A stretch of DNA of 64,000 nt from a virus: IMG/VR virus record IMGVR_UViG_3300021962_000027, one strand, 5' to 3'. How positions within the stretch are numbered: position 1 is the stretch's first letter; every line of letters begins with the position of its first letter. Both the position numbers and the translations under genes were made by a program. Of this stretch, positions 1 to 43,122 are shown one piece after another. The notes under the pieces are model-generated. The model was given only the letters and a program-made list of their open reading frames with translations, ran no database searches and was not told the origin of the DNA.

Positions 1-3000
1 TCATCTGGTTCAACGGGTACGAATGGTACCGCAGGTAATAGTGGTTTATCTAGATTAAGTGGTTCATCCGCTACTTCTGGTTCAAGTGGTACAGATGGTT
101 CAACTGGTGCTTCAGCATTAAGTAAAACATCAGGTACGTCTGGTTCATCAGGATCTACGGGTACGGCTGGTGTTGATGGTGCATCAAATAGTTCAAAAAC
201 TTCAGGTACAAGTGGTTCATCAGGATCAAATGGTATCGCTGGTAATAGCGGTTTATCCGCATTAAGTGGGTCAAGCGGTTCAACTGGTACAAATGGTACT
301 TCAGGTAATAATGGTGTTAATGGTAACTCTGGTTTATCTGCGTTATCTGGTTCAACAGGAACCTCTGGTTCTAACGGTACTGCTGGTGTTGCTGGTAACA
401 GCGGATTAAGTGCGTTAAGCGGTTCGAGTGGATCTACAGGTACAAACGGTACAGCTGGTATCGCTGGTAATAGCGGTTTATCTGCATTAAGTGGTTCATC
501 TGCAACATCAGGAACGAATGGTTCAAATGGTATCGCTGGTAATAGTGGTTTAAGTGCATTAAGTGGGTCTTCTGGATCAACGGGTACAAACGGTACCGCA
601 GGTGTTGCGGGTACATCGGGTGCTTCAGCTAATTCGGGTTCATCAGGAACGGGTGGTTCTAACGGTACGCAGGGTATAAACGGTGGATCAGGGTTAAGTG
701 GTTCTTCTGGTAGTTCAGCAACATCTGGTTCTACAGGTACTGCTGGTAATAGTGGTTTAAGTGCATTAAGTGGATCTTCAGCAACAAGTGGTAGTTCAGC
801 TACTTCAGGAACGAATGGTAGTGCTGGTATCGCAGGTAATAGTGGTTTATCTGCATTAAGTGGATCTTCTGGTTCTACAGGTACAAATGGTACAAACGGT
901 AACAATGGTATTAATGGTAATTCTGGGTTATCCGCATTGAGTGGTTCTACGGGAACCTCTGGTTCTAATGGTACTGCTGGTGTTGCTGGTAACAGCGGAT
1001 TAAGTGCGTTAAGTGGTTCATCTGGTTCTACAGGTACAAACGGTACGACAGGGGCTTCTGGTTTATCTAGATTAAGTGGATCTTCTGCAACTTCAGGATC
1101 AAGTGGTACGGATGGTACGGCTGGTGCTTCAGCGTTAAGTAAAACTTCAGGTACATCAGGTTCATCAGGATCTACGGGTACAGCTGGTGTTGATGGTGCT
1201 TCAGCGTTAAGTAAAACTTCAGGTACAAGTGGTTCATCTGGTTCTAATGGTGTAGCTGGTAATAACGGTCTAAGTGCTAATTCTGGTTCTTCTGGATCAA
1301 CGGGTACAAATGGTACAAACGGTAATAACGGTATTAATGGTAACAGTGGGTTATCTGCTCTAAGTGGATCTACAGGAACCTCTGGTTCTAATGGTACAGC
1401 TGGTATCGCTGGTAACTCTGGTTTATCTGCGTTAAGTGGTTCATCTGGTTCTACAGGTACAAATGGTACTGCTGGTAATAGTGGTTTAAGTGCGTTAAGT
1501 GGGTCTTCTGCATCTTCAGGTAGTTCAGCTACTTCAGGGACAGCTGGTTCTAACGGTTTATCTGCATTAAGTGGTAGCGCTGGATCATCAGCTACTTCAG
1601 GAACATCTGGTTCTGCTGGTATCGCTGGTAATAGCGGTTTAAGTGCGTTGAGTGGGTCTTCTGCAACCTCTGGTACAAGTGGTTCTAATGGTATTGTTGG
1701 CGGTAATGGGTTAAGCGCATTAAGTGGATCTTCTGGATCAACTGGTACGAATGGTACTTCTGGTAATAACGGTATTAATGGTAACAGTGGGTTATCTGCT
1801 CTAAGTGGATCTACAGGAACCTCTGGTTCTAACGGTACTGCTGGTGTTGCTGGTAACAGCGGATTAAGTGCGTTAAGTGGATCTTCTGGTTCAACGGGTA
1901 CGAATGGTACCGCAGGTAATAGTGGTTTATCTAGATTAAGTGGTTCATCCGCTACTTCTGGTTCAAGTGGTACAGATGGTTCAACTGGTGCTTCTGGATT
2001 GAGTAAAACATCAGGTACAAGTGGTTCTTCTGGATCTACAGGAACAGCTGGTGTTGATGGTGCTTCAAATAGTTCAAAAACTTCAGGTACAAGTGGTTCT
2101 TCTGGATCAACGGGTACTGCTGGCGTTGCTGGTAACAGTGGTTTAAGCGCATTATCTGGTTCAAGTGGTTCTACAGGTACAAATGGTACTGGGGGTATCG
2201 CTGGTTTAAATGGTGTTAGCGCTGTTTCGGGTTCAAGTGGTACATCTGGTACGGCTGGTAATAGTGGTTTAAATGGTTTATCTGGTAACTCTGGATCGAC
2301 TGGTACAAATGGTACAAATGGTATTAATGGTAATAGTGGTTTAAGTGCATTAAGTGGTTCTACGGGAACCTCTGGTTCTAATGGTACTGCTGGTGTTAAC
2401 GGTAATAACGGTTTATCTGCATTATCAGGTTCTACGGGAACCTCTGGTTCTAACGGTACGGCTGGTATCGCTGGTAATAGCGGATTAAGCGCATTAAGTG
2501 GATCTTCTGGTACTTCAGGTACAAGTGGTTCTAATGGTATTATTGGTGGTAATGGATTAAGTGCGTTGAGTGGATCAAGCGGTTCAACAGGTACGAATGG
2601 TACTTCTGGTAACAACGGTATTAATGGTAACAGCGGTTTATCTGCGTTATCAGGTTCTACGGGAACCTCTGGTTCTAACGGTACTGCTGGTGTTGCTGGT
2701 AATAATGGTCTAAGCGCTAATTCAGGTTCTTCTGGTTCTACGGGTACAAATGGTACGAATGGTATCGCTGGTAACTCTGGCTTATCTGCATTAAGTGGTT
2801 CGAGTGCTAGTTCGGGTACAAATGGTACAAATGGTATTAACGGTGGTAATGGTAACTCTGGATTATCTGGTTCTACAGGTACAAACGGTACAAATGGTGT
2901 TAACGGTGTGGCTGGTAATTCTGGATTATCCGCATTGAGTGGATCTTCTGGTACTTCAGGTTCTAATGGTACAACTGGTGCTTCTGGTTTATCTGCTCTA

Positions 3001-5130
3001 AGTGGTTCATCAGCATCTTCTGGTTCAAGTGGTACGAATGGTACGACAGGAACTTCTGGTTTATCTAGATTAAGCGGTTCATCTGCAACTTCAGGATCAA
3101 GTGGTACAGATGGTTCAACTGGTGCTTCAGCATTAAGTAAAACTTCAGGTACAAGTGGTTCAAGTGGTTCAACAGGTACATCGGGGGTTGATGGTGCATC
3201 AAATACTTCAAAAACTTCAGGAACATCGGGGTCTTCTGGTTCTAACGGTATCGCTGGTAATAATGGTCTAAGTGCTAATTCAGGTTCTTCAGGTTCAACT
3301 GGTACAAATGGTACCTCAGGTAACAATGGTGCGAACGGTAACTCTGGATTAAGCGGATTGTCTGGTTCTAACGGATCGAATGGTACAAATGGCGTTGCTG
3401 GTAATAATGGTAACAGTGGGTTAAGTGGATTATCTGGTTCTAACGGATCAAACGGTACGAATGGTAACAATGGTATTGCTGGTAATAATGGTTTATCTTC
3501 TATTAGCGGTACATCGGGTTCTTCTGGAACTGGTGGTACAAACGGTTTACCTGTTCCTTCTGGTTCTTCTACATTATCTGGTTCTTCTGGATCAAGTGGT
3601 ACTAATGGTACAAATGGTGTTGCTGGTAATAATGGTAACTCTGGTTTAAGCGGATTGTCTGGTTCTAACGGATCAAATGGTACAAATGGTATCAATGGTA
3701 TTGCTGGTAATAACGGTTTATCCGCATTATCTGGTTCTAACGGTACAAACGGTACAAACGGTATCAATGGTATTGCTGGTAACAGCGGGTTAAGCACATT
3801 AAGTGGGTCTTCTGGTACTTCAGGTACATCTGGTTCTAATGGTATTGCTGGTAATAATGGTGCTTCAGCATTAAGTGCGTCTTCAGGTACAAGTGGTACA
3901 AATGGTTCAAGTGGTAAAGCTGGTACAGCTGGTACATCTGGTATTAATGCATCTTCAGGTACTAGTGGTGTTGATGGATCAAGTGGTAGAACAGGTACGA
4001 ATGGTACTTCTGGTGCAAATGGTATCGCTGGTACTAGTGGTAACTCTGCGTTATCAGGTTCTACGGGTACGAATGGTACAAATGGTATCAATGGTATTGC
4101 TGGTAATAGTGGCTTAAGCGCATTAAGTGGATCTAATGGTACAAACGGTACGAATGGTAACAATGGTATTGCTGGTAATAGTGGTGTAAGCGGTGCCTCT
4201 GGATCCTCAGGCTCTAATGGTACAAACGGTACAACTGGTTTGATGGCTAATTCAGGCGCTTCAGGGTCTTCAGGGTCTTCAGGGTCTACGGGTACAAATG
4301 GTACAACTGGTGCAAACGGGCTGAGCGCTGGATTTGGTGCGACATTTGGTTCTGGTACATCGGGGTCTTCTGGTTCAACAGGTTCTAACGGTACGACTGG
4401 TAATAATGGTATTGCTGGTAACAGTGGGTTATCTGCTCTAAGTGGTTCAAGTGGTACGAATGGTACAAATGGTGTTGCTGGTAATAATGGTAACAGTGGT
4501 GTATCTGGTGTTAATGGGACAAATGGTACTTCTGGTAACAATGGTGCGAATGGTAACTCTGGATTAAGCGGGTTATCTGGTTCTAACGGATCAAATGGTA
4601 CAAATGGTGTTGCAGGTATTGCTGGTAACTCTGGATTAAGCGGGTTATCTGGTTCTAACGGATCAAATGGTACAAATGGTGCGAATGGTAACTCTGGTGT
4701 GAGTGGTTTATCTGGTAGTTCAGCAACAGCTGGTACAACAGGTACTGGTGGTGTATCAGGCGCTTCTCGTACAGCTGGTACATCAGGTGTGTCCGCAACT
4801 TCTGGTACGAATGGTACTTCAGGTGCTGGTACATCGGGTGTTGGTCAAAACGGTACCTCTGGTGCAAATGGTTCTTCTGGTACTACAGGTACAGCAGGTA
4901 CTTCTGGTGCTGGTGGTACAGCGGGTACTGGTAGGTTATCAGCTTCTTCAGGAACATCTGGTACAAACGGTACTTCTGGTGCTAATGGTACAAACGGTAC
5001 TTCAGGTAATGCTGGTAATTCTGGTTTAACTGGTGCTGGTGGTACTTCAGGTGCAAATGGTTCTAACGGTACCTCAGGCGCTGCTGGTACAAGTGGTCAA
5101 TCAATTAGCGGTACATCGGGTATCAGTGGT
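1..5130 (+). repeat. Low-complexity tripeptide repeat region with ~0.9-1.1 kb super-repeats
   Basis: Recurring GNSGLSALSGS/TGTNGT units. The SRL..SKTSGTSG..VDGAS block recurs near 49, 1066, 1930 and 3064. Bases 4-113 are identical to 1885-1994. Confidence 0.9.
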
Positions 5131-5583
5131 GGTTCATTTACAAACCAACCTGACTATTTGGTTAGAACAACAAGTACAACACAAGTACAGAGTGTTGGTT
5201 TCTTAAAAGCTGATATGACAAACTCTAGATTGGGTGTTAATAACGCTTCGCCAGCATATACCTTGGATGTTACGGGTGATATCTACGCATCTGGTGATGT
5301 TACAGCGTATTCAGATGAAAGAGTTAAGGAAAATATCGTAACGATTAGTGATGCCTTGAATAAAGTAAAAAGTATTAGAGGTGTTAACTATACAAGAAAA
5401 GATACTGAAGATAAATCATTAAAAATGGGTGTGGTTGCACAAGAAATCCAAAGAGTTGTCCCAGAAGTAATCTCAATTAGAGAAGATAACGGGCACTTAA
5501 GTGTGGCATACGCAAACTTGGTTGGTCTACTTATCGAAGCGATAAAAGATCTTGACAAAGAGATCCAAGAATTAAAGAAATAA
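1..5583 (+). CDS. Very large Gly-X-Y (Ser/Thr/Asn/Ala-rich) tail fibre with C-terminal peptidase S74 intramolecular chaperone; 5'-truncated by the window edge
   Basis: Frame 1 is open from base 1 (SSGSTGTNGTAGNSGL...), so the 937 start in the track is internal. The C-terminus, GDVTAYSDERVKENI...GVVAQE...VAYANLVGLLIEAIKDL plus a coiled coil, is the S74 chaperone signature. Confidence 0.9.
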   Translation, partial: SSGSTGTNGTAGNSGLSRLSGSSATSGSSGTDGSTGASALSKTSGTSGSSGSTGTAGVDGASNSSKTSGTSGSSGSNGIAGNSGLSALSGSSGSTGTNGTSGNNGVNGNSGLSALSGSTGTSGSNGTAGVAGNSGLSALSGSSGSTGTNGTAGIAGNSGLSALSGSSATSGTNGSNGIAGNSGLSALSGSSGSTGTNGTAGVAGTSGASANSGSSGTGGSNGTQGINGGSGLSGSSGSSATSGSTGTAGNSGLSALSGSSATSGSSATSGTNGSAGIAGNSGLSALSGSSGSTGTNGTNGNNGINGNSGLSALSGSTGTSGSNGTAGVAGNSGLSALSGSSGSTGTNGTTGASGLSRLSGSSATSGSSGTDGTAGASALSKTSGTSGSSGSTGTAGVDGASALSKTSGTSGSSGSNGVAGNNGLSANSGSSGSTGTNGTNGNNGINGNSGLSALSGSTGTSGSNGTAGIAGNSGLSALSGSSGSTGTNGTAGNSGLSALSGSSASSGSSATSGTAGSNGLSALSGSAGSSATSGTSGSAGIAGNSGLSALSGSSATSGTSGSNGIVGGNGLSALSGSSGSTGTNGTSGNNGINGNSGLSALSGSTGTSGSNGTAGVAGNSGLSALSGSSGSTGTNGTAGNSGLSRLSGSSATSGSSGTDGSTGASGLSKTSGTSGSSGSTGTAGVDGASNSSKTSGTSGSSGSTGTAGVAGNSGLSALSGSSGSTGTNGTGGIAGLNGVSAVSGSSGTSGTAGNSGLNGLSGNSGSTGTNGTNGINGNSGLSALSGSTGTSGSNGTAGVNGNNGLSALSGSTGTSGSNGTAGIAGNSGLSALSGSSGTSGTSGSNGIIGGNGLSALSGSSGSTGTNGTSGNNGINGNSGLSALSGSTGTSGSNGTAGVAGNNGLSANSGSSGSTGTNGTNGIAGNSGLSALSGSSASSGTNGTNGINGGNGNSGLSGSTGTNGTNGVNGVAGNSGLSALSGSSGTSGSNGTTGASGLSALSGSSASSGSSGTNGTTGTSGLSRLSGSSATSGSSGTDGSTGASALSKTSGTSGSSGSTGTSGVDGASNTSKTSGTSGSSGSNGIAGNNGLSANSGSSGSTGTNGTSGNNGANGNSGLSGLSGSNGSNGTNGVAGNNGNSGLSGLSGSNGSNGTNGNNGIAGNNGLSSISGTSGSSGTGGTNGLPVPSGSSTLSGSSGSSGTNGTNGVAGNNGNSGLSGLSGSNGSNGTNGINGIAGNNGLSALSGSNGTNGTNGINGIAGNSGLSTLSGSSGTSGTSGSNGIAGNNGASALSASSGTSGTNGSSGKAGTAGTSGINASSGTSGVDGSSGRTGTNGTSGANGIAGTSGNSALSGSTGTNGTNGINGIAGNSGLSALSGSNGTNGTNGNNGIAGNSGVSGASGSSGSNGTNGTTGLMANSGASGSSGSSGSTGTNGTTGANGLSAGFGATFGSGTSGSSGSTGSNGTTGNNGIAGNSGLSALSGSSGTNGTNGVAGNNGNSGVSGVNGTNGTSGNNGANGNSGLSGLSGSNGSNGTNGVAGIAGNSGLSGLSGSNGSNGTNGANGNSGVSGLSGSSATAGTTGTGGVSGASRTAGTSGVSATSGTNGTSGAGTSGVGQNGTSGANGSSGTTGTAGTSGAGGTAGTGRLSASSGTSGTNGTSGANGTNGTSGNAGNSGLTGAGGTSGANGSNGTSGAAGTSGQSISGTSGISGGSFTNQPDYLVRTTSTTQVQSVGFLKADMTNSRLGVNNASPAYTLDVTGDIYASGDVTAYSDERVKENIVTISDALNKVKSIRGVNYTRKDTEDKSLKMGVVAQEIQRVVPEVISIREDNGHLSVAYANLVGLLIEAIKDLDKEIQELKK

Positions 5584-5584
5584 T

Positions 5585-5620
5585 AAATAAGAAAGGGGCC
5601 TAAAACCCCTTTTTTTATTT
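5585..5620. terminator. Bidirectional intrinsic terminator between convergent genes
   Basis: AAAGGGG-cctaaaa-CCCCTTT stem flanked by A and T tracts. Confidence 0.8.
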
Positions 5621-6448
5621 CCTTAAACTATTAAGTGACTTTAAAGCCCTTTCTCTAGCCCTTTCCTTGTCGATTCTGACATTTTCATCAACAAATGGAT
5701 ACTTTATATTACCCAGGGATGAAATGATCTCTAAAGCGATGTTTTTGGCCTGTTGCGCATAACCAATACTAACATATTCTTTAGATGAATGCATGTTATA
5801 GTAACCAACCGAATAGTTTATGCACGAAAAATCATAAAATGAACCTAAAACACTAACATCGGTATATGGGTGCCTACCTAATACGTAATCACCCATATAA
5901 TCCTCTAGTATTGGTTCTATTGTTTTGTAGAAATCACCGTTTTCATCAAATAATTTAACACCGTTACAATAATGTGTTACCCAATCATTTTCAGGGGCAT
6001 CAAATTGTAGTGCATACCCAACATTTTCAAAAAATGTCTCATCCGCTAGTGTTGAACCGAAGCAACCATATTCTTCAGAAACGAAAAAAGCTGCTTTTAA
6101 GACCTCTACACGCTCAAGTAATTCCAAACACACATAAACACCCGCTTTATTGTCTCCACCGCACCCAGTGGGCTTATTTGTACCTTTTTCAACCGCATAT
6201 ATAATGTCTTCCTCATCAGGATGATGTAATATGTCCATGTCAACGATTCTATGTACAGAATCTGTATGTGCAACAACACATGGGTAATGTTCAGCAAAAC
6301 CTTTTATCACAAAGATATTACCGTGTTCATCTATCGTATAATCTAAATTATATTCATTAAGATATTTAGTTATTTTTGCTATGAGATATTGTTCTTGACC
6401 ACAATAAGTTGGGGTTGATAAAATATCTTTTAATTTTTCTTTACTCAT
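5615..6448 (-). CDS. M20/M28/M42-type zinc metallopeptidase
   Basis: Metal-ligand motifs in the expected order: AHTD, GGDNKAG, SEEYG, QFD, YNMHS. Confidence 0.8.
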   Translation of the reverse strand: MSKEKLKDILSTPTYCGQEQYLIAKITKYLNEYNLDYTIDEHGNIFVIKGFAEHYPCVVAHTDSVHRIVDMDILHHPDEEDIIYAVEKGTNKPTGCGGDNKAGVYVCLELLERVEVLKAAFFVSEEYGCFGSTLADETFFENVGYALQFDAPENDWVTHYCNGVKLFDENGDFYKTIEPILEDYMGDYVLGRHPYTDVSVLGSFYDFSCINYSVGYYNMHSSKEYVSIGYAQQAKNIALEIISSLGNIKYPFVDENVRIDKERARERALKSLNSLRK

Positions 6449-7010
6449 TAAAATATGATTTTAAATTTTGTTTTTGGATAATACCTTTTAATGTTGTTAC
6501 ATATATTGGGGCTTCAGCATAACTACTGGACAAGTATAAAAAGTATTTATCTTCGGTATTTAAGTCGTTTAGATACGCACATTGGAAAAAAGCCATATCT
6601 AAAACACCATCCTGCCATTTCTTATAAAAAGCGAAATTATTCTTTGACCCAGAGGCTGTTGTCATTCTATTTCTAGCCTCTCGCATACCGAATAAATTAT
6701 TATTTGTTTTAAATAACCCGCTTCTACCCATACCGCTCTCAACAATAGCTTGTGCCATCACAATATAGGGGAATTTTATTTTTTTATTTTTTAATTCGTC
6801 AATGAATTTCTCTTTTGAGAATTTGTCCCTCTCTTTTTGTAGGTTAATTATTCGCACTCCCTTTTCAATGGTATCTAAAGTATCTGATTGGAAGTATCTA
6901 CCAATAAAAAAGGAACCTACCATCAATAAAATGGTGGTTCCTAATGCTATTTTTACACCAAGTTTGTTCTTGACAAACTTTAGTTGTTGATCATCGTATT
7001 TATAAAACAT
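6441..7010 (-). CDS. GH73 glucosaminidase/muramidase with N-terminal membrane anchor
   Basis: AQAIVESGMG...NNNLFGM and C-terminal YAEAPIY motifs; hydrophobic helix IALGTTILLMVGSFFIG. Confidence 0.8.
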   Translation of the reverse strand: MFYKYDDQQLKFVKNKLGVKIALGTTILLMVGSFFIGRYFQSDTLDTIEKGVRIINLQKERDKFSKEKFIDELKNKKIKFPYIVMAQAIVESGMGRSGLFKTNNNLFGMREARNRMTTASGSKNNFAFYKKWQDGVLDMAFFQCAYLNDLNTEDKYFLYLSSSYAEAPIYVTTLKGIIQKQNLKSYFNE

Positions 7011-7036
7011 AACTATTGCTACATAGGGTATAGCAA

Positions 7037-7044
7037 CAAATATA
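7037..7044 (-). promoter_or_regulatory. Bacteroidota primary-sigma -7 element (TATATTTG) upstream of GH73
   Basis: Matches the TAnnTTTG consensus, 27 nt before the start. Confidence 0.55.
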
Positions 7045-7045
7045 C

Positions 7046-8323
7046 CTAAAAAAACTTACCAAAAAAACTTTTCTTATCTTTTTTTTCTAAATCTTCTTCA
7101 ATAACACCTGCTTCGGGTCCGTCTTTTTTGGTTAAAAGCCTATCAACAGCATCTATAACGGTTTGGGTACTAATAGTTTTAGAACATTCGAAATGTCTTG
7201 GGGTATCTTTATGATCTGGGCACCATTCCCAATCCCCTGGGTTTAACCAATGTCTATTAAAGCACCCATTACAAACATTTTGATCTGGGTTAAAAATTCT
7301 TTCACAATCAGCGAACTCGGATAACGGGTAGCTAAATCCAGAGATGAGCGCTGTTGGTGTACCAATTGCCCATGATAACCAACTTAAACCACTACCAAGT
7401 CCAATAAAGGCGGATGCGTGTTTAATATCAATCATTCTATCAACAAGACCGATATGACCACCTGTTTTATCAATAACATTTTTTAGAGTACCCCCGAGTT
7501 TGGAATCATGCCAGGTATCACCTAATTTTTCTGATGTGATCATAACAACCTTATAACCATTATCATTTAAGTGATCGATAACACCTTGCCAACCACCTGG
7601 ATGATTCCAATATTTAGCGTGCGCAGAGGCGTGTGGTGCAATAATCACGTATTTACCATCAATTCTACTTGGTTCCTCAGGTACAAAAACTTTGGGTTTA
7701 ACTTCCGTGTAATCGAGCCCTAAAATACATGAACTAGTTTCTTGTAAGGGGTGTTGTTTAAAATCGATTGGGATTTTTGTTTTAACAACCTCTTTGTTAT
7801 CATAAAACCAACCAATTTTATACATCGCATATAAATCAACAACAGGTGTGCCTGGTTTAACAAATTCAATATCAGGGTACATAGATTCAAACCATTCATT
7901 ATGGAAAGTTGAGCATAATACTTTACACCCATGTTTTTTTCTAAATTCATCCGCATACGGGAACCAAGCCATTGTATCACCAACAGCTGAACTATCTAAA
8001 TGAATGTAAACTCTTTTGCCGTTACAATCATATGTGTGTTCAAAAACCAATTCATCGGTATCTAATTCATATACCTTAATATTCCACTCAATGAAATATT
8101 CAATAGAGCTTTTCGTCCACATATTATTCGTAATTTCTGATACGTGGTGAATATCCCCAGTTTTGTTATCAGAAAAAACAACCTTATATTTTTTAGATAT
8201 AGGTCCTTTGATTTCACATAAAGCTCCATTCACAAAATGCACTATAAATGAATTTGATGGTTCTTTATAATCTCTTCTTAAGATTTCTGTGTTATTGTAT
8301 TCGTTAATTAAGATGTCCTTCAT
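7046..8323 (-). CDS. Aah/TibC-family (BAHT) protein O-heptosyltransferase-like glycosyltransferase
   Basis: N-terminal beta domain, GDTMAWFPYADEF, FIGLGSGLSWLSWA, SGFS..EF and the four-Cys iron site CNGC...WCP.HK.T...FEC, as in TibC/Aah. Confidence 0.85.
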   Translation of the reverse strand: MKDILINEYNNTEILRRDYKEPSNSFIVHFVNGALCEIKGPISKKYKVVFSDNKTGDIHHVSEITNNMWTKSSIEYFIEWNIKVYELDTDELVFEHTYDCNGKRVYIHLDSSAVGDTMAWFPYADEFRKKHGCKVLCSTFHNEWFESMYPDIEFVKPGTPVVDLYAMYKIGWFYDNKEVVKTKIPIDFKQHPLQETSSCILGLDYTEVKPKVFVPEEPSRIDGKYVIIAPHASAHAKYWNHPGGWQGVIDHLNDNGYKVVMITSEKLGDTWHDSKLGGTLKNVIDKTGGHIGLVDRMIDIKHASAFIGLGSGLSWLSWAIGTPTALISGFSYPLSEFADCERIFNPDQNVCNGCFNRHWLNPGDWEWCPDHKDTPRHFECSKTISTQTVIDAVDRLLTKKDGPEAGVIEEDLEKKDKKSFFGKFF

Positions 8324-9929
8324 ATTTTTTGTAGATAAAATTATTTATTATTAATAAGTCAACGATATTATTTTCCAGATGGTTAAACGCTTCGTTAGGG
8401 TGGCATACAATTGGTTCTTCGTGTACATTAAATGATGTGTTTAAAAGAATTGGTACACCAGTTATTTTATTATACTCATCCAAAATTCTATAGAAGGTTG
8501 GATTACTTTTTTTGGTAACTATTTGTATTCTAGCTGTTTTATCTTTAGGGTGGACAACCGTTGGTATTCTATCCGCCCATTCGGGTCTTGTGTCATATAA
8601 CATTGTCATAAACTCAGCCGTATACCTTGATTTAGAGACATTAAAAATCGTATTAGCGTGTTCTTCCATAACAGCTGGTGCAAATGGCATGAAATCATTT
8701 CTTTGGAGCTTATTATTGATCTTGTCATAGGTATCTGGGTTAGTCACCTCACCAATAATACTACGATTACCTAATGCTCTTGGCCCATGTTCATACCTAC
8801 CATTAAAAACACCTATAATTTTACCCTCGGAAAGATATTTAGCAGCCAATTCTGGTGTAAAAATTTCTCTAGAGAAATTGTTTTGATCCCAATAGTTTTC
8901 ACCAACCTCAGCATCGGTATATTCAGTACCCATAAACATGTTCTCTAATCTAAATGGTTTGAAATCTGGTGTAAACATCTTGTGCACTAATAACGCACAA
9001 CCCAGTGGGCAACCTTCATCACCCATTGGTGGGGCTACAAACATCTCGTCAACCCAATATAACTCATTAATACGTTTATTTAATTTAACATTGGCAAAAA
9101 CACCACCAGCAACTGCAACTTTTTTAATATTTGGGAACATATTATGTAGGTTATTAAAAACCTCTAATATTTTTTCCTCAAAAACCATTTGACCAGTATA
9201 AGCCAGATCAGCTTTTTTACCAAAAAATACCTTAGACCCCATCGATGTATAATATTTAGTATAGAAATCAACGTACAATTGTCCAAATAATACCTCGGAT
9301 TGATCTTTATCGGTATGAATACCCTCTATCTTAATACATTCATTAAAAGCTTGATATGAGAAGCTATCGTGTTCACCATGCCCAGCCATACCAACAACTT
9401 TACCTTCATCCTTAAGTCTTTTAAAACCTAAAAATTCTGTTAACATAGCGTAATAATGACCAAAAGATTTTCTTGTTAAATCTAACCCATCAATGTATTG
9501 TAAATTACCGTTGGTACCTATAAAATATTTAGCACTATATTGTCCACCACTAGCATCCATTGTAACGACAAGTGTATCATCGGTAAAACTACTCATATAA
9601 TATGCTGTTCCAGCGTGTGAATCATGGTGATCTATAAATATAAATTTTTGTTCTGGGAATAAACCCAAACCTAAACCTTCCCAAAATATTTTAACCTCAT
9701 TTTTGGGGTAATAACTAGTAATATAATCAATAGAATTACAATCTAAATTAAACCTATTGATGGCCTCATGCATTGATGATTGTGGGTACCTAAAAGTATC
9801 ACTATAAAAATCTTTATACACCTTTACCCTGGTATGTCTTTCTTCTTCTAAAGAAAAAATTATCTTACCGTTATCGATTAAACTAATACCACATGAATGC
9901 GACCCCGCTGAAATCCCTAATATCTTCAT
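8304..9929 (-). CDS. O-carbamoyltransferase (NodU/CmcH/TobZ family)
   Basis: EEERHTR, HHDSHA, EGKVVGMA, AGGVFANVKLN, EHGPRALGNRS, MPFAP, TARIQ and LNTSFNVHEEPIV motifs. Confidence 0.93.
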   Translation of the reverse strand: MKILGISAGSHSCGISLIDNGKIIFSLEEERHTRVKVYKDFYSDTFRYPQSSMHEAINRFNLDCNSIDYITSYYPKNEVKIFWEGLGLGLFPEQKFIFIDHHDSHAGTAYYMSSFTDDTLVVTMDASGGQYSAKYFIGTNGNLQYIDGLDLTRKSFGHYYAMLTEFLGFKRLKDEGKVVGMAGHGEHDSFSYQAFNECIKIEGIHTDKDQSEVLFGQLYVDFYTKYYTSMGSKVFFGKKADLAYTGQMVFEEKILEVFNNLHNMFPNIKKVAVAGGVFANVKLNKRINELYWVDEMFVAPPMGDEGCPLGCALLVHKMFTPDFKPFRLENMFMGTEYTDAEVGENYWDQNNFSREIFTPELAAKYLSEGKIIGVFNGRYEHGPRALGNRSIIGEVTNPDTYDKINNKLQRNDFMPFAPAVMEEHANTIFNVSKSRYTAEFMTMLYDTRPEWADRIPTVVHPKDKTARIQIVTKKSNPTFYRILDEYNKITGVPILLNTSFNVHEEPIVCHPNEAFNHLENNIVDLLIINNFIYKKYEGHLN

Positions 9930-10876
9930 TACTTTACGTATTCTTTATAAACCTCTAATAATTCTTTTGACCTATTATACCATGATAATGATTCGGCATG
10001 TTGGATAGCTCTTTCACGGTATGAATCATAATTAGCAATAATATCGTCTAAACCACGAACAATGTCAGTAACTTTTCTTGGTGCTCTCCACATCCCGTCA
10101 AAATCAGTTTCCATCTCAATCCAACCGTCAATAGGTAAACCACATGCAGCTGCTTCTAATATCGTTAAATTTGGGTGCCCTGCCTCTAACTCAGATGGGT
10201 GCATAAAGATTGTATGTCTATGATACAAATCAACTAATTCATCTTGGTTAGGTTCCCATTCAATTGATAATTTAGGGTAGCCATTAACCCATGGGTTTTC
10301 ATTAAAGAAGTTTTGATTATTTCTTGGACCAGCGATTGTAATAGGTAGGTTTCTAGCCATAGCCGCTTGAATAGCAAAACCAAAACCCTTTCTATCGTAA
10401 CCATCCATACCAGCTAACCCGTTATTAGCTAAACACAATAGCTTATGCTCTTTTGGTTTAATTTTCGATGGGTGGTAAAAATCGGTGTTAACCCCATGTG
10501 AAAAGTATATAGCTTTTTCCGTATCAAAATATGGTACTAAAAATTTACCTGGCATTAAAGAAACTTCTGATTCTAGAATAGCCCTATTATTTTCATTAAA
10601 TACGAATGAATTTTTACCGTAATAATACGCATGATGATCATGTAATTGATAAATGTAAGGTATACCCCTATCATGTAGAAAATGAGCTAAGTTGGCCATG
10701 TGTACGTGAACAATATCATACTCACCTGGTTTAATCTCATTGGCGTATTTAATGTCAACCTCGTGACCTAATAATCTTAAATTCTGAGTGAACTCCCATA
10801 CTATTTTTTCCACAGCACCCCAATTAGGTGGTGGTACTGGGATTCCACATCCAGGGTGTACTTGACATATTCTCAT
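9929..10876 (-). CDS. GT4-like (GT-B) glycosyltransferase
   Basis: PVPPPNWGAVEKIV N-terminus; HGVNTDFY; RKGF; PSELEAGHPNLTILEAAACGLP. Confidence 0.85.
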   Translation of the reverse strand: MRICQVHPGCGIPVPPPNWGAVEKIVWEFTQNLRLLGHEVDIKYANEIKPGEYDIVHVHMANLAHFLHDRGIPYIYQLHDHHAYYYGKNSFVFNENNRAILESEVSLMPGKFLVPYFDTEKAIYFSHGVNTDFYHPSKIKPKEHKLLCLANNGLAGMDGYDRKGFGFAIQAAMARNLPITIAGPRNNQNFFNENPWVNGYPKLSIEWEPNQDELVDLYHRHTIFMHPSELEAGHPNLTILEAAACGLPIDGWIEMETDFDGMWRAPRKVTDIVRGLDDIIANYDSYRERAIQHAESLSWYNRSKELLEVYKEYVK

Positions 10877-10882
10877 ATTATA

Positions 10883-13627
10883 TTAATTTGTAAAAATTTC
10901 TGCGTAATCGTTATCTTTATTTTTATCTTTTCTATCCACTATGGAGTAACCAGGTAAATGTTTCGTATATATTTTGTTAGCCATAGCGCCATGTAAACCA
11001 GCAACTTTAGTCATCCATAAATCAAACGCATCCCATTTACATGTTTCAAACTTCTCCACAAAATTAGGTAATTTTTCTCTATTAATCAAGTAAGATTGTG
11101 CAGGTGCGAAAATACTCAAATTAAGCATTAAATCTTCTCGTTCACCATCATATCTTTCCGCACAGTAATTACCAAAACCTACCATGTCTACGTTTTCTTC
11201 TTTAGCTAATTGTGACCATCTAACTAAATTATCATATAACTCCTGATAAGGTGCATCGATAATAACATCACCCTCAAAAACTAGGATAAAATCATATTGA
11301 TTATTATCAGTTAAAGTGATACCATTTTTGTGTGCTAAGAAACAACCATAATGTCCTGGTGATAACTTGAAATACCCTGGTTCAGATGCGACATCATGCG
11401 GTCTATTACAACTATCAACTGGTGGTAAATCTTTATAAATTTCGTTAATTTTTTCATAATATTCAATATTATCGAAATTATTGGCAAAATCTTTTAAAGA
11501 ATGTGCGGATCTTATTTCTTTACCATTTACGGTTGGTTCAGTAACTAAATGAACAATCCTAATTTTAGGTTTATCACTATTATTTAGTAAACCAACATTA
11601 CCCTGATCACCTTTATATTCAAACATACCATTATTAGGTAAAGTATTTATAATGTAGTCATTATCGATTCTAATGAATTTACTTTCAATAAATTGTTGGG
11701 TATCTTTATCAAACGATTGGTAATCAACGGTATATTCAGCGTTATCATCAAAATTATACCCAACCATACTATACCAAGAACCCCTACCCGTGACAGTAAT
11801 TTGGTCCTCTTTTAATAAAGACCCGTTTTTATTAATTTTTATATTAATAATTCTACTATCTATTGAATTTGATCCCTGGAAATAAACTGTAAATGAATTA
11901 GGTACATTAGTTGGTAACACAGTAAAATATTCCACTCTAGAATAATCTCTATGATGGAAATTATTAGAAACTTCGGTTTTAAACTGTTCTTCACCCACTA
12001 ATTCAATCTGATTTATTTTATCCTTAAAAGCAAAATACATCAAATTTTCATAACCATTACTAAATGAACCCCATTTAGCTCTTAAATTTTCGTAATCTTG
12101 TGCACAAAATATCGGTTCAACGGAATCTAAGTAAAAAGAAGGTTTAATACCCATAAAAAATGTTGTAACTGAATGACCTTCTGGGTTATTAGGCATATCA
12201 CCGAAATAAGCTGATTTAGTGTTTAATACGTTTGAGATATTATCTAAATAAGCGTCATTTTTTAGAATATAATCATAGTTAAGGAAATAAATTTTCTCCA
12301 TACCTAATTTTAAAGCTAATGCAGCACCGTTATAATAATTGGTGTAGCAAGTTGGGCCATGATAAACATCATTATCCTCACCCCTTAAATTAACAAATGC
12401 GAAAAAATCGTCTTCACCGTATCTACTTTGTGAATAAAAAGTATGTTTAGTTAATATATTGTTTTTATCGTAAATACAATAATCAACTAAGTTTTGTAAA
12501 TCCTGTGAAATTGGTAGATGTGATGTTAAAATAACCTTTCTACCAGTTTTTTTAGCGGCTAAAATACATTCAACTGTTGTATCAAACGCACTTTTTGTTG
12601 TTGGGTAGGTTGATATGATTACAGCTTCATTTCCTCTGTTAATCGCTAAAGCCTGATTTGTTTGATGACCATTTTCAAGAACTTCTTTAATTAAAGAACA
12701 GTTTTTATTAAAATCAGTAAAATCTAAATACTTGATATTGTCAAATTTATCAAAATAGTTAAGATAAACACCTAGATTATAAATTAAAATTGGTAAATTC
12801 CATGAAATCGCTTCACGAATAACTAATGGCATTGTTTCTTTATCATTATCAGTACCTCTAGATGTGAATAAAAATAAATCCATTGCTTGGTAAAATCTAT
12901 CAACATCTTTTCTCTCACCATGCCAAACAACATTATGGGGTTTATTAATCATTAAGGGTTCCCAATAATGTGCGAAATTACCCGCTTGGTTCCCAACTGA
13001 GTGGAAAACGTATTCTGGTAAAGATTTAGCGTATTCAAAAAATTCTTTTTGATTTTTTCTTGGTGTGAATAGGCCAACGTGTAAAACATGTTTTTTACTC
13101 GGATCTAACCCAAGATCTTTTAACGCATCTTCTCTATTTGGTCTTTGTTTATATTCAATTGGGTATTCAACTAAAACTTTGGGGATATCAATCGATTCGA
13201 ATAATTTAATTTGCCAATCAGACACGAACATAAACTTGTCTGGGAAAAATTTCTTTTGTGTAGCATCATATGATGAATCATGTGATGTTTCCACGATAAT
13301 ATAGTTACGATCTTTTTTGTAGATTTCTTTAGCAACGCCAAAATCCATAAAATATTCGGGGATTTCTTCTAAATGAATAATATCTGGCGATATTTGATTA
13401 ATAATCTCAACTAATTGCATTTTATCATCACCCAGGGTAAAGAATTTATCTGGGGCGACCATTGAAGTTATTTTATCTCTTTGTACAACTAATACACCAC
13501 CAGTATGGTTAGACCATTCAATAACATAAATATCAAATGACTCTTTTAATAATTCAATTTTTTTAGTTAGGTACTGTGGTAAACCACCCGTGGATAAATG
13601 TGGGGCGATATATAATAATTTTTTCAT
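10883..13627 (-). CDS. Multi-domain glycosyltransferase (GT4 + central GT-A-like + GT25-like)
   Basis: N-terminal HLSTGG...VGLFTPRKNQ...ETMPLVIREA (GT4); central YHGP...FLNYDYIL domain; C-terminal SPGHYGCFLAH...VFEGD...AQSYLI (GT25-like). Confidence 0.75.
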   Translation of the reverse strand: MKKLLYIAPHLSTGGLPQYLTKKIELLKESFDIYVIEWSNHTGGVLVVQRDKITSMVAPDKFFTLGDDKMQLVEIINQISPDIIHLEEIPEYFMDFGVAKEIYKKDRNYIIVETSHDSSYDATQKKFFPDKFMFVSDWQIKLFESIDIPKVLVEYPIEYKQRPNREDALKDLGLDPSKKHVLHVGLFTPRKNQKEFFEYAKSLPEYVFHSVGNQAGNFAHYWEPLMINKPHNVVWHGERKDVDRFYQAMDLFLFTSRGTDNDKETMPLVIREAISWNLPILIYNLGVYLNYFDKFDNIKYLDFTDFNKNCSLIKEVLENGHQTNQALAINRGNEAVIISTYPTTKSAFDTTVECILAAKKTGRKVILTSHLPISQDLQNLVDYCIYDKNNILTKHTFYSQSRYGEDDFFAFVNLRGEDNDVYHGPTCYTNYYNGAALALKLGMEKIYFLNYDYILKNDAYLDNISNVLNTKSAYFGDMPNNPEGHSVTTFFMGIKPSFYLDSVEPIFCAQDYENLRAKWGSFSNGYENLMYFAFKDKINQIELVGEEQFKTEVSNNFHHRDYSRVEYFTVLPTNVPNSFTVYFQGSNSIDSRIINIKINKNGSLLKEDQITVTGRGSWYSMVGYNFDDNAEYTVDYQSFDKDTQQFIESKFIRIDNDYIINTLPNNGMFEYKGDQGNVGLLNNSDKPKIRIVHLVTEPTVNGKEIRSAHSLKDFANNFDNIEYYEKINEIYKDLPPVDSCNRPHDVASEPGYFKLSPGHYGCFLAHKNGITLTDNNQYDFILVFEGDVIIDAPYQELYDNLVRWSQLAKEENVDMVGFGNYCAERYDGEREDLMLNLSIFAPAQSYLINREKLPNFVEKFETCKWDAFDLWMTKVAGLHGAMANKIYTKHLPGYSIVDRKDKNKDNDYAEIFTN

Positions 13628-13680: not shown

Positions 13681-13710
13681 AAAAAAAGGGTGGAAAAAAT
13701 CCACCCTTTT
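13681..13710 (-). terminator. Intrinsic terminator after the major capsid gene
   Basis: AAAAGGGTGGA-loop-TCCACCCTTTT stem followed by a U tract on the minus strand. Confidence 0.85.
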
Positions 13711-13733
13711 CATTATTAATGTAAACCTTAAGA

Positions 13734-15314
13734 TTATCTCAAACCTGCGATACCGAAGCTAACGATATTTTTACACTTGATTACACCATAGAAACGGTTA
13801 TTAACCATTTTCTTAGCGTAACGAGTCATAATACCTTTAACTGGTGCGAAAGTGAACGGGTTGTACATTGTAGGAGTTAATTGCATTGGCACGTATGGTG
13901 CGTAGATGTAACCTGTATCCAACAAAGATGTACCTTTGTGACCCATCAAGATTGTATCAGCTGGGAAGTAAGGATCACGGTAAACTTGGTATCTTCCACC
14001 CAATGAACCGATTCTTTCAATACCCATGTTATATTTGTCTTGCTCTGGAGCAGCGTTAGATACGTGGAAGTATTCTAAGTCGTCCAAGATAGCTGAAACC
14101 TCAGCAGAAACTACGATCCAGTTAGCACCACCTCTTAAAGTAGCTTTGTGGATTTGTGCAGAAACTTGGTTGATCGCAGTGATCAAAGTTTGGTTCCAAT
14201 CTTTTTGAGTATAGAAACCGTTTGATGCAGATAAACCACCAGTGTTAACTCTTGAACCAGAGTAATCCCAAGTCATTCTCCATGCAGCGCCTCTACGTAA
14301 GTCACGTAAAATTTCACGGTCAATCTCAGCAGCAACTTGCTCAGACAATAAAGCTGTCAATTCAGCTTCTGCATCAATGTTATGGAACGCTGATACGTCT
14401 TGAGCTAATTCTGGAGACCATTGAGCTCTTAACTTTCTTTCGATAACAGAAACTGTTACAGACTTAAGTTCGAAGCTAACTTCACCCATTTGATCATTGT
14501 ACTCTAAAGATTCGTATTCTTTAGCTGTTACTGTTAAACCAGTTAATGGTAAAGCTACAGAAGCACTATTGTTAACAACAGCGATATAGATATCACCATT
14601 AGCTTCCATAATTGAGTTACCATATTTTTGAGCTGGCAAGTAGAAATCGAAATCAGCGCTAGCTGTAGCTGAAGTGATTGCCAATGTTGACATTACTTCC
14701 TCAGCGTTTTCCCAGTTAGTGATAGCTGAACCAAAGTTAACTTTGATGATTTCAGTTGAGTTAACTGGAACTGAAGTACCAGCTTTAGTAGCGTAACCGT
14801 TACCAGCAGCAGAAGTAAACTGATACAAGTTAGCAGTTGTTTTAGTACCTGTTAAAGTAGTTGCAGCACCTTTAGAGTTGTCATAAAGACCATTCTCTCC
14901 GTAGAAAGAGTCATAAAGGTTAGCGCTAACTGAAGTTCCAGTTGGGTTGATACCAGCAGCAGCTGCATCAAACGCTGAATTTTCCAATTTAGGTACGAAG
15001 TAGAACAATTTACCGATAGGTAAGTTCAATGCTTGTACAGAAACGATTTCGTTAGCTAATAATTTAGAGAATACTCTTCTCACGATTGGGAATACCACTG
15101 TTTCGAAAGAACCTTCGTTACCTAAAGCAACTGATTCATTAAGCATATAAGATGCTTGGTTTTCAAATAATTGTGCGATATTCTCTTTTCTGTGACCACC
15201 TAAGCCTTCTAAAAGACCTAAGCTGTCCCATCTGTTAATTACGTCAGTACGTACAGCTTTCAAGTGATTTAAGCTTACGTTACCAACTTTTCCTGATTCT
15301 AATAATGCTCCCAT
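13734..15314 (-). CDS. Major capsid protein, T4 gp23-like
   Basis: LFENQ, PIVRRVF, VSVQ, RKLRAQWSPELAQD..AFHNIDAEAEL...EIDREI and GYIYAPYVP...TRYA motifs. Confidence 0.96.
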   Translation of the reverse strand: MGALLESGKVGNVSLNHLKAVRTDVINRWDSLGLLEGLGGHRKENIAQLFENQASYMLNESVALGNEGSFETVVFPIVRRVFSKLLANEIVSVQALNLPIGKLFYFVPKLENSAFDAAAAGINPTGTSVSANLYDSFYGENGLYDNSKGAATTLTGTKTTANLYQFTSAAGNGYATKAGTSVPVNSTEIIKVNFGSAITNWENAEEVMSTLAITSATASADFDFYLPAQKYGNSIMEANGDIYIAVVNNSASVALPLTGLTVTAKEYESLEYNDQMGEVSFELKSVTVSVIERKLRAQWSPELAQDVSAFHNIDAEAELTALLSEQVAAEIDREILRDLRRGAAWRMTWDYSGSRVNTGGLSASNGFYTQKDWNQTLITAINQVSAQIHKATLRGGANWIVVSAEVSAILDDLEYFHVSNAAPEQDKYNMGIERIGSLGGRYQVYRDPYFPADTILMGHKGTSLLDTGYIYAPYVPMQLTPTMYNPFTFAPVKGIMTRYAKKMVNNRFYGVIKCKNIVSFGIAGLR

Positions 15315-32608: not shown

Positions 32609-33322
32609 TCAGGTATCCAAATAATCGTCCTTAAAAATCTTATATAAAGACTTAAATCTCTTCATACTATTCCTAATTTCCTTAGTATTTAAACCTGTCA
32701 TGTTTCTAATATATAGTAATATTAGGTTTTTATTAAATTTAGGTGAATTCTTACCGTCATTAACTTGTGAGAATAATTCTCGCCATTCTTCAAGTATTTT
32801 AACCAATGAGTGCCCAACTTTAAATTCGTTTTCGGATAAATTATCGGCATCAAGATCTTTTCTTATATTAGACGCTAGTGATTCAATAAAAATATTTAAA
32901 TCTAATTCATCATTATCAATCCTATATAATAGTTCATCCCTTTTTAGGATATCACCCTCACTTTGATCAATGTCAACAAGTGACATATTTTTTTTATATT
33001 CTTTAACCATCTCACCAAAGAGATAGTTTTTACAGATGGTACCAAAATATGAAAATGATCTTTTACCCTTTTCGGGTTTAAATTTATCAAATTTAGTCAT
33101 TAAGAATGATAGTGTATCCGCATGCAGGTCGTTGAATTCGTATGATTGTCTGTATAATTTATACGTTCGTATTATACTTTCTATCATAGTATTGATAGGT
33201 TCTTGTAAATATTCTCGATAAATTTTTTCTCTTTCTCCGACAGTTTTAGCATCCAGAAACATGATCACCGCTTTCTCCTGGTCCACACCATAGTAGTTGC
33301 GATCTTTTTTCTGTCTTGCCAT
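32609..33322 (-). CDS. Phage sigma factor, T4 gp55-like (late transcription)
   Basis: Region-2-like KFDKFKPEKGKRSFSYFGTICKNYL. Confidence 0.7.
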   Translation of the reverse strand: MARQKKDRNYYGVDQEKAVIMFLDAKTVGEREKIYREYLQEPINTMIESIIRTYKLYRQSYEFNDLHADTLSFLMTKFDKFKPEKGKRSFSYFGTICKNYLFGEMVKEYKKNMSLVDIDQSEGDILKRDELLYRIDNDELDLNIFIESLASNIRKDLDADNLSENEFKVGHSLVKILEEWRELFSQVNDGKNSPKFNKNLILLYIRNMTGLNTKEIRNSMKRFKSLYKIFKDDYLDT

Positions 33323-35843: not shown

Positions 35844-35891
35844 ATCATTATTTTTAGATAAAAATAATAATGAAGTGGTGTAAAATAAACC

Positions 35892-36656: not shown

Positions 36657-36657
36657 A

Positions 36658-36948
36658 TTAAAAGTAATTTTCGCTGTTTATATTTTTATCATCAATAAAT
36701 AAATCATAAGGTGGTTTACCAAACTTTAACTCGTGGTATTTAACACCCCATTCTTTAAATTGTTTCTTTGTTAACTCTGAATGGTCAATACCTGTAACAG
36801 AACCTCTTGCTGTCCAGTATACAATTGTATTACCTTCATCGTATAATTTATTTATTTTTTCAATCCTTTCGGGCATCGGTGTTACTTCATTATAATCGGT
36901 ACCCTCTGTAACACATATTGTATTATCAATATCAACGTATATTAACAT
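36658..36948 (-). CDS. Capless HAD phosphatase (capsule-biosynthesis type); candidate nonulosonate-9-phosphate phosphatase
   Basis: VDIDNTI, WTARG and GKP..DLFIDDK motifs; adjacent to NeuB. Confidence 0.75.
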   Translation of the reverse strand: MLIYVDIDNTICVTEGTDYNEVTPMPERIEKINKLYDEGNTIVYWTARGSVTGIDHSELTKKQFKEWGVKYHELKFGKPPYDLFIDDKNINSENYF

Positions 36949-36983
36949 AGTTTAACTAATTTGATGTCGTCTTTATTTTTTAA

Positions 36984-37817: not shown

Positions 37818-37821
37818 TTTG

Positions 37822-43121: not shown

Positions 43122-43122
43122 A

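Follow-up and report, generated by a model that had tools for sequence, protein, structure and literature searches.

Members of the BAHT family of protein O-glycosyltransferases move heptose from ADP-heptose to serine residues of proteins, assemble into dodecameric rings and are encoded beside the gene of the autotransporter that serves as their substrate. A gene of this family lies in a 64,000-nucleotide stretch of virus DNA (IMG/VR record IMGVR_UViG_3300021962_000027, the whole of which is called the window here), a fragment of a large T4-like phage, within a unit of enzyme genes that converges on the 3' part of a giant collagen-like fibre gene. The closest described systems are TibC-TibA and Aah-AIDA-I of E. 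coli (TIGR04414; 4rap, 4rb4; PMC4358343), which resemble the window in having a homologous enzyme with the same catalytic and ADP-heptose residues and the same four-Cys finger, in placing the enzyme gene beside that of a long, repetitive, Ser-rich acceptor, and in the logic of cytoplasmic hyper-glycosylation. They differ from it in several respects: the window enzyme comes from a lytic phage, its neighbour is a Gly-X-Y fibre with a Peptidase_S74 (S74) domain rather than a beta-helical passenger, TibC position 300 is occupied by Gly, the TibC_1st domain is not detected by Pfam, and the window adds four more glycosyltransferase (GT) modules and a carbamoyltransferase, additions that suggest a glycan extended and tailored beyond single heptoses. 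Comparison with about 160 other phage contigs shows, at the level of gene content, that this cassette travels among phage genomes with giant Ser/Thr-rich fibre genes, mostly proline-free and collagen-like. It is suggested that the phage probably O-glycosylates its own fibre, perhaps with carbamoylated heptose-based glycans. An original prediction, made from the letters of the window, had proposed that the phage glycosylates its own fibre or virion; the identity of the enzyme and its linkage to the fibre are borne out, and the proposal as a whole is partly supported. The BAHT family and the idea of virion glycosylation were known beforehand, and what would be new is the kind of substrate, the occurrence in phages and the modular tailoring; the literature search found no paper describing a phage-encoded BAHT or a glycosylated collagen-like phage fibre, and none on Microcystis phage Mel-JY01, which carries a homologous enzyme.

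Other precedents cover parts of the proposed system. In the work attributed to Freeman et al. 2023, mycobacteriophage GTs reportedly decorate capsid and tail-tube proteins. The likeness is that GTs of a phage reportedly, or by conjecture, place O-glycans on Ser/Thr-rich stretches of structural proteins of that phage; the difference is that the enzymes are of other families (no BAHT, no carbamoyltransferase), the hosts are Actinobacteria and the acceptors are short C-terminal extensions of capsid or tube proteins in place of a collagen-like fibre on the micrometre scale. BclA of the Bacillus anthracis exosporium and the cuticle collagen of Riftia are triple helices in which Thr O-glycans replace hydroxyproline (both cited in PMC11923368), but these are cellular proteins of a Pro-containing GPT type modified by other GTs, whereas the window fibre is virtually Pro-free and Ser-dominated. 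TobZ, NovN, GdmN and NodU and, by its description, WapO belong to the same two-domain carbamoyltransferase family as the window enzyme. WapO supplies a natural precedent for carbamoylation of heptose: this NodU-family enzyme of Pseudomonas (PA5005) is a putative 7-O-carbamoyltransferase of heptose II of the lipopolysaccharide (LPS) core (PMC8005017).

The enzyme on which the comparison turns, and the counterparts in it of the TibC residues whose roles are described in PMC4358343, are listed here.

7046-8323, minus strand: BAHT-family (TibC/Aah-type) protein O-glycosyltransferase of 425 aa, identified by TIGR04414 and by alignment with TibC
TibC Asp110, the catalytic base: Asp116 in the window BAHT
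TibC Lys230, contacting the beta-phosphate: Lys237
TibC Arg286, contacting adenine N1 and explaining ADP specificity: Arg296
TibC Trp305, contacting heptose O4: Trp315
TibC Thr226, contacting the beta-phosphate: Ser233, a conservative replacement
TibC Cys339, 342, 358 and 370, the iron finger: Cys351, 354, 368 and 380
TibC Pro300 (Ser294 in AAH), governing D,D- versus L,D-heptose selectivity: Gly310

Against the TIGR04414 hidden Markov model, a search that the original prediction had put forward as a check, the protein scores 317.1 bits over model positions 20-373 of 374 (curated equivalog cut-off 200), whereas LPS heptosyltransferase models give only 20-34 bits; it matches the TibC structure 4rap at E 1.3e-56, and in the alignment with TibC the key residues are kept or conservatively replaced, including all four Cys of the iron motif that had been noticed at the outset. 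By sequence, the 425-aa protein is a genuine member of the BAHT family, and iron binding is predicted. The match to TIGR04414 begins at residue 36, and TibC_1st (PF21129) gives no match at E <= 0.01 in the window BAHT and a weak one in the Mel-JY01 homologue. The active site speaks for an ADP-heptose-type donor, because the residues that contact ADP and heptose are kept, and this goes against the initial suggestion that the donor might not be heptose; an active site is not proof of a donor. The neighbour of the gene is a collagen-like phage fibre with an S74 domain and without an autotransporter beta-barrel. Among the metagenomic proteins scored, at least 4905 match the window BAHT at E <= 1e-10, and many of these homologues are already labelled automatically as 'autotransporter strand-loop-strand O-heptosyltransferase'. 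In 400 sampled Bacteroidia genomes no BAHT was found, save on one contig of a metagenome-assembled genome (MAG) that is itself a phage fragment, and by this distribution the BAHT looks phage-specific.

The candidate acceptor is encoded at the 5' edge of the window.

1-5583, plus strand: 3' part of the giant fibre gene, 1860 aa in a frame open at the 5' window edge, so that the full protein exceeds 1860 aa
5311-5469, plus strand: Peptidase_S74 intramolecular chaperone domain, fibre residues ~1771-1823 (PF13884, E 3.5e-14, 53 bits against a cut-off of 22)

Residues 1-1690 of the fibre hold a single triplet register of 563 Gly-X-Y triplets, with Gly at the third position in 458 and Ala in 63, the latter mostly in the context Gly-Leu-Ser-Ala-Leu-Ser-Gly. 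The X position is chiefly Thr, Ser, Asn or Leu and the Y position chiefly Ser, Asn, Ala or Thr; overall the fibre is 29% Gly, 26% Ser, 12% Thr and 12% Asn, with 0.1% Pro and 1.4% Asp, Lys and Arg together, and its 38% of Ser and Thr amounts to about 650 such residues per chain. It matches the Pfam Collagen family and models of collagen-like adhesins. A fibre region of more than 1800 aa made largely of Ser-Gly and Thr-Gly triplets had been described at first; the length and the triplet repeat hold, but the repeat is not merely Ser-Gly/Thr-Gly, since by sequence it is a collagen-like Gly-X-Y array, the triple helix itself being predicted. A long antisense frame opposite the fibre is a by-product of the repeat. 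Between the array and the S74 domain stands a non-collagen stalk of about 80 residues, and the motif Ser-Asp-Glu-Arg-Val-Lys at residues 1771-1776, a Ser/Lys cleavage motif, marks the start of the domain. In known fibres and spikes of the endosialidase type, S74 domains nucleate trimerisation and then cleave themselves off, and by analogy the window domain is expected to act as a trimerisation nucleator followed by self-release. A full-length homologue of the fibre, in a related locus, has 2721 aa, of which only about 45 residues make up the N-terminal non-collagen part. The canonical rise of collagen is about 0.29 nm per residue; because of this, the part of the fibre in the window alone would span about 0.5 micrometres, and the thread probably 0.5-0.8 micrometres.

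Bacterial and viral collagens are usually stabilised by two means, proline and charged residues. The window fibre does without both proline and Lys-Gly-Asp/Glu salt-bridge triplets, the latter (KGD/KGE) being reported as the commonest in viral collagen-like proteins (PMC11923368). Glycosylation offers a precedent for a third means of stabilisation: Ac-(Gly-Pro-Thr)10 folds only with galactosylated Thr, and glycosyl-threonine stabilises worm cuticle collagen (both cited in PMC11923368).

The enzyme unit consists of six closely packed minus-strand genes at 5615-13627, several of them overlapping, which comprise five GT modules (one of them the BAHT), one O-carbamoyltransferase, a glucosaminidase and an M20-like peptidase. 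All the elements that the original prediction named are present where it had placed them; the operon is longer than the four genes it had counted, two more following the BAHT gene. The other genes of the unit, the hairpins at its ends and the capsid gene are as follows.

13734-15314, minus strand: major capsid protein of T4 type (Gp23 family; PF07068, E 4e-74), a context gene that lies upstream of the enzyme unit in the window's lineage only
13683-13711, minus strand: terminator-like hairpin with a 12-bp stem and a T run, just past the capsid gene and ahead of the enzyme unit
10883-13627, minus strand: 914-aa protein with three GT domains, recognised by Pfam, AlphaFold models and structure comparison
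9929-10876, minus strand: GT4-type (GT-B) glycosyltransferase of 315 aa (Glycos_transf_1, 27 bits against a cut-off of 26.4)
8304-9929, minus strand: NodU/TobZ-type O-carbamoyltransferase of 541 aa (Carbam_trans_N, E 3.5e-34; Carbam_trans_C, E 4e-59)
6441-7010, minus strand: glucosaminidase of 189 aa, an endolysin-type muramidase domain (PF01832, E 2.5e-15; endolysin PHROGs)
5615-6448, minus strand: M20/PepT-like metallopeptidase-fold protein of 277 aa, the last gene of the unit (weak PepT-like matches; phrog_4191 peptidase, E 2e-37)
5589-5615, both strands: terminator-like GC-rich hairpin between the convergent fibre gene and enzyme unit, from a consensus scan only

A sequence search with the whole 914-aa protein against solved structures gave nothing useful, and its domains came from modelling: two AlphaFold models (mean pLDDT 77 and 81.5) agree with the three-domain GT originally reported in showing one GT-B and two GT-A domains. 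In these models residues 1-326 have a GT-B fold that matches GT4 enzymes at Z 21-24, residues ~330-590 a GT-A fold (Z ~14), residues ~566-654 a beta-sandwich and residues ~686-900 a second GT-A fold at Z 13-14 (Mimivirus R655 14.2, GnT-I 13.7, PBCV-1 A64R 12.9). COLGALT1 aligns over both GT-A domains (Z 14.8, 374 residues, root-mean-square deviation ~21 A), and the third domain scores 16-20 bits on Pfam GT25 (PF01755; E 5e-4), under the cut-off of 24. A COLGALT1-like architecture is suggestive, but Z is tied with generic GT-A folds and the two domains are oriented differently; with the Pfam match below cut-off, the third domain is not called a GT25 here. The likeness to the animal and giant-virus collagen enzymes (COLGALT1/GLT25D1, LH3, R655) is one of alignment over the tandem GT-A part and of the P4H-type (prolyl-4-hydroxylase-type) oxygenases that related cassettes add, whereas the animal acceptor is hydroxylysine, and the window fibre has 0.5% Lys with no lysyl hydroxylase found.

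The carbamoyltransferase gene shares 20 nt with the start of the BAHT gene and 1 nt with the stop of the GT4 gene. Its product matches the solved structures of NovN, GdmN and TobZ at E 1e-43 to 1e-50, with a Kae1-like N-terminal and a YrdC-like C-terminal domain; NodU itself was considered and rejected, the score being 137 bits against an equivalog cut-off of 1000.

The evidence that ties the enzymes to the fibre comes from the related viral loci. A first set of 238 viral loci with a BAHT was found, the best 80 of which were kept, and these show two gene orders. Loci of group A, the window's own lineage (BAHT 71-94% identical), have the window order of capsid gene, GTs, carbamoyltransferase, BAHT and convergent fibre, while those of group B (BAHT 61-68% identical) have fibre, multi-domain GT, GT4, sometimes an FkbM methyltransferase, and BAHT, all on one strand, directly upstream of the tail sheath, tube and baseplate genes and tens of kb from the capsid gene. 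Co-occurrence of BAHT with such fibres across phage genomes had been proposed as a check, and the count bears it out: among the 40 loci whose flank on the fibre side reaches 3 kb or more, 34 have a Gly-X-Y open reading frame (ORF) no farther than 3 kb from the cassette, namely 12 of 12 in group A and 22 of 28 in group B, with two further group B loci having one at 3.2-4.1 kb. None of 74 control loci, from related T4-like phages without the cassette that were reached through the capsid protein (54-67% identical; ~1 Mb in total), has a collagen-like ORF within 10 kb. GT4 adjoins BAHT in nearly all related loci and is 54-94% identical in both gene orders, and the N-terminal and middle domains of the 914-aa GT are kept in all 25 aligned homologues, the third being missing from 663-aa forms. 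The carbamoyltransferase is confined to group A, as is the comparison for the M20-like peptidase, 78-93% identical across group A loci. The glucosaminidase gene is missing in several group A loci; because it is variably present among relatives, its product probably stands outside the glycosylation machinery and is related to lysis.

The tailoring enzymes vary with the chemistry of the neighbouring fibre. An oxygenase of the PF13640 (P4H-type) 2-oxoglutarate-dependent family occurs in 9 of the 80 first-set loci, and all four of these with a visible fibre have a Pro-rich, Ser-poor collagen, whereas none of the ~30 loci with Pro-free Ser/Thr collagen has one. In those four (L048, L049, L066 and L071) the collagen is rich in Pro and Gln and the cassette adds a GT2-methyltransferase and the oxygenase; the first three also gain a DUF6445 protein. 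In two other loci (L040, L053) the upstream fibre is not a collagen and has long Gly/Ser/Thr/Asn repeats of ~15 residues and an S74 end, which by sequence resemble the beta-roll or beta-helix sort that classical BAHTs modify; a sulfotransferase is present in the cassette. The genes concerned are these.

L048 4607-7095: tailoring genes beside the Pro-rich collagen (GT2-methyltransferase fusion, DUF6445, P4H-type 2-oxoglutarate oxygenase)
L053 6260-7078: sulfotransferase in the cassette beside the beta-roll-type fibre (L040, L053)

This covariation, seen in only about three independent lineages, would be hard to explain unless the fibre is the substrate.

More distant enzymes keep the same company in altered form. 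The enzyme of the cultured phage Mel-JY01, annotated as 'methyltransferase FkbM', is a GT4-BAHT fusion of 1226 aa with the BAHT at its C-terminal end, and just upstream of the fusion is an unannotated frame of 1788 codons, of which ~1000 are Ser/Thr Gly-X-Y. This frame (PP395634 187,687-190,001 joined to 1-3049; in the extracted loci, L172 7687-10001 and L001 1-3049) crosses the end and start of the linear record, and the deposited coding sequences at 1-651 and 739-2298 on the opposite strand look like antisense artefacts of the repeat. In the 735-kb phage LR756501 a shuffled multi-GT protein and an ORF that is collagen-like in part stand beside a GT4-BAHT fusion. A second set of 83 loci was gathered, 80 through the Mel-JY01 enzyme (46-58% identical to it) and 3 through that of LR756501. 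Six loci of this set without a Gly-X-Y ORF were inspected: four have an ORF of more than 2000 aa, rich in Thr, Ser and Gly, immediately upstream, and in a fifth a 1248-aa ORF lies upstream, with a poly-Thr mucin-like protein after it. At L248 4236-5600, a 455-aa mucin-like protein of poly-Thr and Thr-Glu-Ala-Pro adjoins a GT-BAHT. The general rule seems, from gene neighbourhoods, to be a BAHT and GT beside a giant Ser/Thr-rich structural protein, a proline-free collagen being usual in the window's clade.

On the reading preferred here, the unit at 5615-13627 would be a module for post-translational modification of the phage's own fibre. Late in infection, the BAHT would move a sugar from an ADP-activated donor, most likely heptose, to Ser hydroxyls of the fibre, possibly on chains that have yet to close into a triple helix from the C-terminus, where the S74 domain would nucleate it; that timing may apply because peptides, too, are substrates of TibC. 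The residues that TibC glycosylates are Ser and not Thr, in contexts such as Gln-Asn-Ser-Gly-Gly (PMC4358343), to which the 39 Gly-Asn-Ser triplets of the window fibre bear a loose resemblance. GT4 and the three-domain GT, together four other GT modules, would add or extend sugars, and the carbamoyltransferase would cap a sugar by O-carbamoylation, as WapO putatively does on LPS heptose. Dense O-glycosylation at the exposed X and Y positions would replace the missing stabilisation of the helix by proline and charge, and the resulting thread would be hydrated, protease-resistant and possibly adhesive.

Late expression of the six-gene unit is presumed. The T4 late-promoter motif TATAAATA is not enriched in the window (15 found against 16 expected), and a scan for sigma-70-like promoters gave sites no more numerous than in shuffled sequence. 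In a run labelled as a metatranscriptome, contigs near-exactly match parts of the carbamoyltransferase, the 914-aa GT, the 3' end of the fibre and the capsid gene. The depth of exact contigs is far lower over the enzyme genes than over the capsid gene, a weak hint that fits the hairpin at 13683-13711, with the provisos that DNA carry-over is possible in such a library and that contigs cannot rank expression.

Several points weigh against this reading. ADP-heptose pathway genes were not found in the window as far as tested, as the original prediction had noted, nor was a SIS_2/GmhA match found in five related phage records, and availability of the donor hinges on the host. At the position that decides heptose stereoselectivity in TibC, Pro300 there and Ser294 in AAH, the window BAHT has Gly. 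The characterised BAHTs act on beta-helical autotransporter passengers, on Ser only and with single heptoses, so that a collagen acceptor and extension of the glycan are extrapolations by analogy, and a glycan on any such fibre is deduced from genes and comparison. The loci are phylogenetically related, and counts such as 34 of 40 exceed the number of independent events. The collagen is Ser-poor and Pro/Gln-rich in four to six of those 40 loci, the second, more distant set has a Gly-X-Y ORF in only 21 of 42 two-sided loci, and the 636-kb phage LR756504 has a lone BAHT with no collagen-like or other such fibre ORF within 20 kb. GTs and fibre genes also both pile up in the hypervariable regions of T4-like phages. 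The GTs of the tail-fibre region in pelagimyophages have been read as remodellers of the host O-chain (PMC7029224).

The supply of the donor was followed further in the related records. These contain PfkB kinases of 250 aa, which match rfaE domain I best (98-126 bits), and a 153-aa nucleotidyltransferase whose scores are 65 bits for rfaE domain II and 67 for glycerol-3-phosphate cytidylyltransferase; all matches to domains of HldE, of the ADP-heptose pathway, fall under the curated cut-offs, and neither the kinase nor the nucleotidyltransferase has a homologue in the window at E 1e-5. The 313-bp gap at window positions 44347-44659 is empty; in one related record (G002, locus L169) the same flanking genes enclose a 248-aa PfkB kinase, and the best match of this kinase is the heptose-7-phosphate kinase domain of HldE. 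In another, of group B (G003; L168 1036-3247), two genes come after the HldE-kinase-like one: an RmlC-like epimerase, whose 138 bits fall short of the cut-off of 156, and an SDR dehydratase/epimerase. The trio hints at a pathway for a modified (deoxy-)heptose or hexose donor.

The same features can be read in other ways. The cassette might remodel the host surface (LPS core, O-antigen, capsule or a surface protein), for instance to block superinfection, and lie near the fibre by virtue of the hypervariable region. This is the published interpretation for pelagimyophages (PMC7029224), it would agree with the frequency of GT4, GT25-like and GT9-related folds among LPS enzymes and with the failure to find heptose pathway genes (in the window as tested, and GmhA in five related records), and a NeuB-type synthase and a GT29-like transferase are encoded in a second glycan island of the window. 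The island occupies 33322-44346 and contains the following.

33322-34152, minus strand: GT2
36984-37817, minus strand: NeuB-family synthase without SAF domain (PF03102, E 2e-60)
37822-38463, minus strand: FkbM methyltransferase
39283-40293, minus strand: GT29 sialyltransferase-like protein
40268-40918, minus strand: CMP-sugar synthetase-like protein (PseF-like, 52 bits, under cut-off)
40915-41577, minus strand: MptE/Maf(DUF115)-like protein, weak
41574-42281, minus strand: Glyco_tranf_2_5
43123-44346, minus strand: GT1-like protein, weak

Through these genes at ~33-44 kb the phage may be able to synthesise and transfer a CMP-nonulosonic acid. The island was considered as a part of the BAHT system and left out of the core model, NeuB being present in only one of five related records. 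Remodelling of the host surface is nevertheless unlikely: the BAHT scores 317 bits on its own family against 20-34 on the LPS heptosyltransferase models, its fibre neighbour is kept in two genome positions and gene orders, the covariation of P4H-type oxygenase and sulfotransferase with fibre chemistry would be left unexplained, and the phages are lytic and T4-like with the unit inside the late structural region.

A further alternative is that other virion proteins are glycosylated and not, or not mainly, the fibre: the capsid protein or, after the example of mycobacteriophages and chloroviruses, proteins with short Thr/Ser/Gly tags. In the window's lineage the unit comes straight after the capsid gene, and candidate acceptor sites exist as (TTGS)n tags in two unrelated ORFs of the window.

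27781-27870, minus strand: N(TTGS)7TT tag inserted in a 486-aa ORF (26971-28431)
51857-51913, minus strand: N(TTGS)4TTG tag inserted in a 502-aa ORF (50876-52384) unrelated to the 486-aa ORF

Given that the other gene order puts the cassette tens of kb from the capsid gene and still beside the fibre, and that each fibre chain offers ~650 Ser/Thr and the tags a few tens, this is improbable as a replacement for glycosylation of the fibre, with which it is compatible and not exclusive. The resemblance of the third GT domain to the virion-glycan builders PBCV-1 A64R (Z 12.9) and Mimivirus R655 (Z 14.2) also points towards virion proteins, but these structural matches are tied with many generic GT-A enzymes. 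That the transferases modify bases of the phage DNA, like the glucosyltransferases of T4, is hardly credible: the N-terminal GT-B domain does match T4 alpha-glucosyltransferase in structure at Z ~20, but dozens of unrelated GT4 enzymes score at least as high, BAHT is a family of protein-Ser transferases, and linkage to the fibre gene and to P4H-type oxygenases has no DNA rationale.

If glycosylation of the fibre is taken as the working model, a wider proposal can be made, tentatively and with more doubt than confidence: that aquatic phages share a modular, mobile toolkit for fibre modification, in which BAHT and GT4/GT-A modules are combined with swappable carbamoyl-, methyl- or sulfotransferases or prolyl-hydroxylase-type oxygenases matched to the fibre, dense glycans in the window's lineage replace hydroxyproline and salt bridges in folding and stabilising the proline-free, uncharged thread, and the (TTGS)n tags are perhaps acceptors as well. 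If so, the toolkit would represent a new class of virion glycosylation and a new natural route to collagen stability.

The rest of the window (~31% G+C) agrees with its assignment to a T4-like phage. Terminase, portal, prohead protease and the Gp23-type capsid protein are encoded in one long minus-strand run, with the DNA polymerase, helicase and tail sheath genes farther along; the nearest named relatives of the capsid protein, about 40% identical, are from Microcystis phage Mel-JY01, Flavobacterium phages and uncultured huge phages. In the DNA polymerase of family B (47210-50314, minus strand), an inserted DUF7831 domain (E 2e-43) separates the exonuclease part from the polymerase part. Near-identical DNA is present in metagenome runs labelled freshwater, riverine, estuary and marine. 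A collection of species-representative genomes gave a single BAHT locus, on a phage fragment that had been binned with a Winogradskyella MAG, and this is a faint indication of a host.

If the fibre is glycosylated as suggested, the BAHT family, known only as virulence-linked modifiers of autotransporters and spread over hundreds of viral contigs, more than 580 viral loci in all, and thousands of metagenomic proteins, gains a new substrate class and a new setting. The GTs in the fibre region of aquatic T4-like phages, now read as remodellers of the host O-chain, would get a new reading, and the existence of proline-free, uncharged collagen sequences would be explained. A glycan coat on the fibres would also matter for adsorption of the phage, for the stability of its particle and for grazing or immune recognition.

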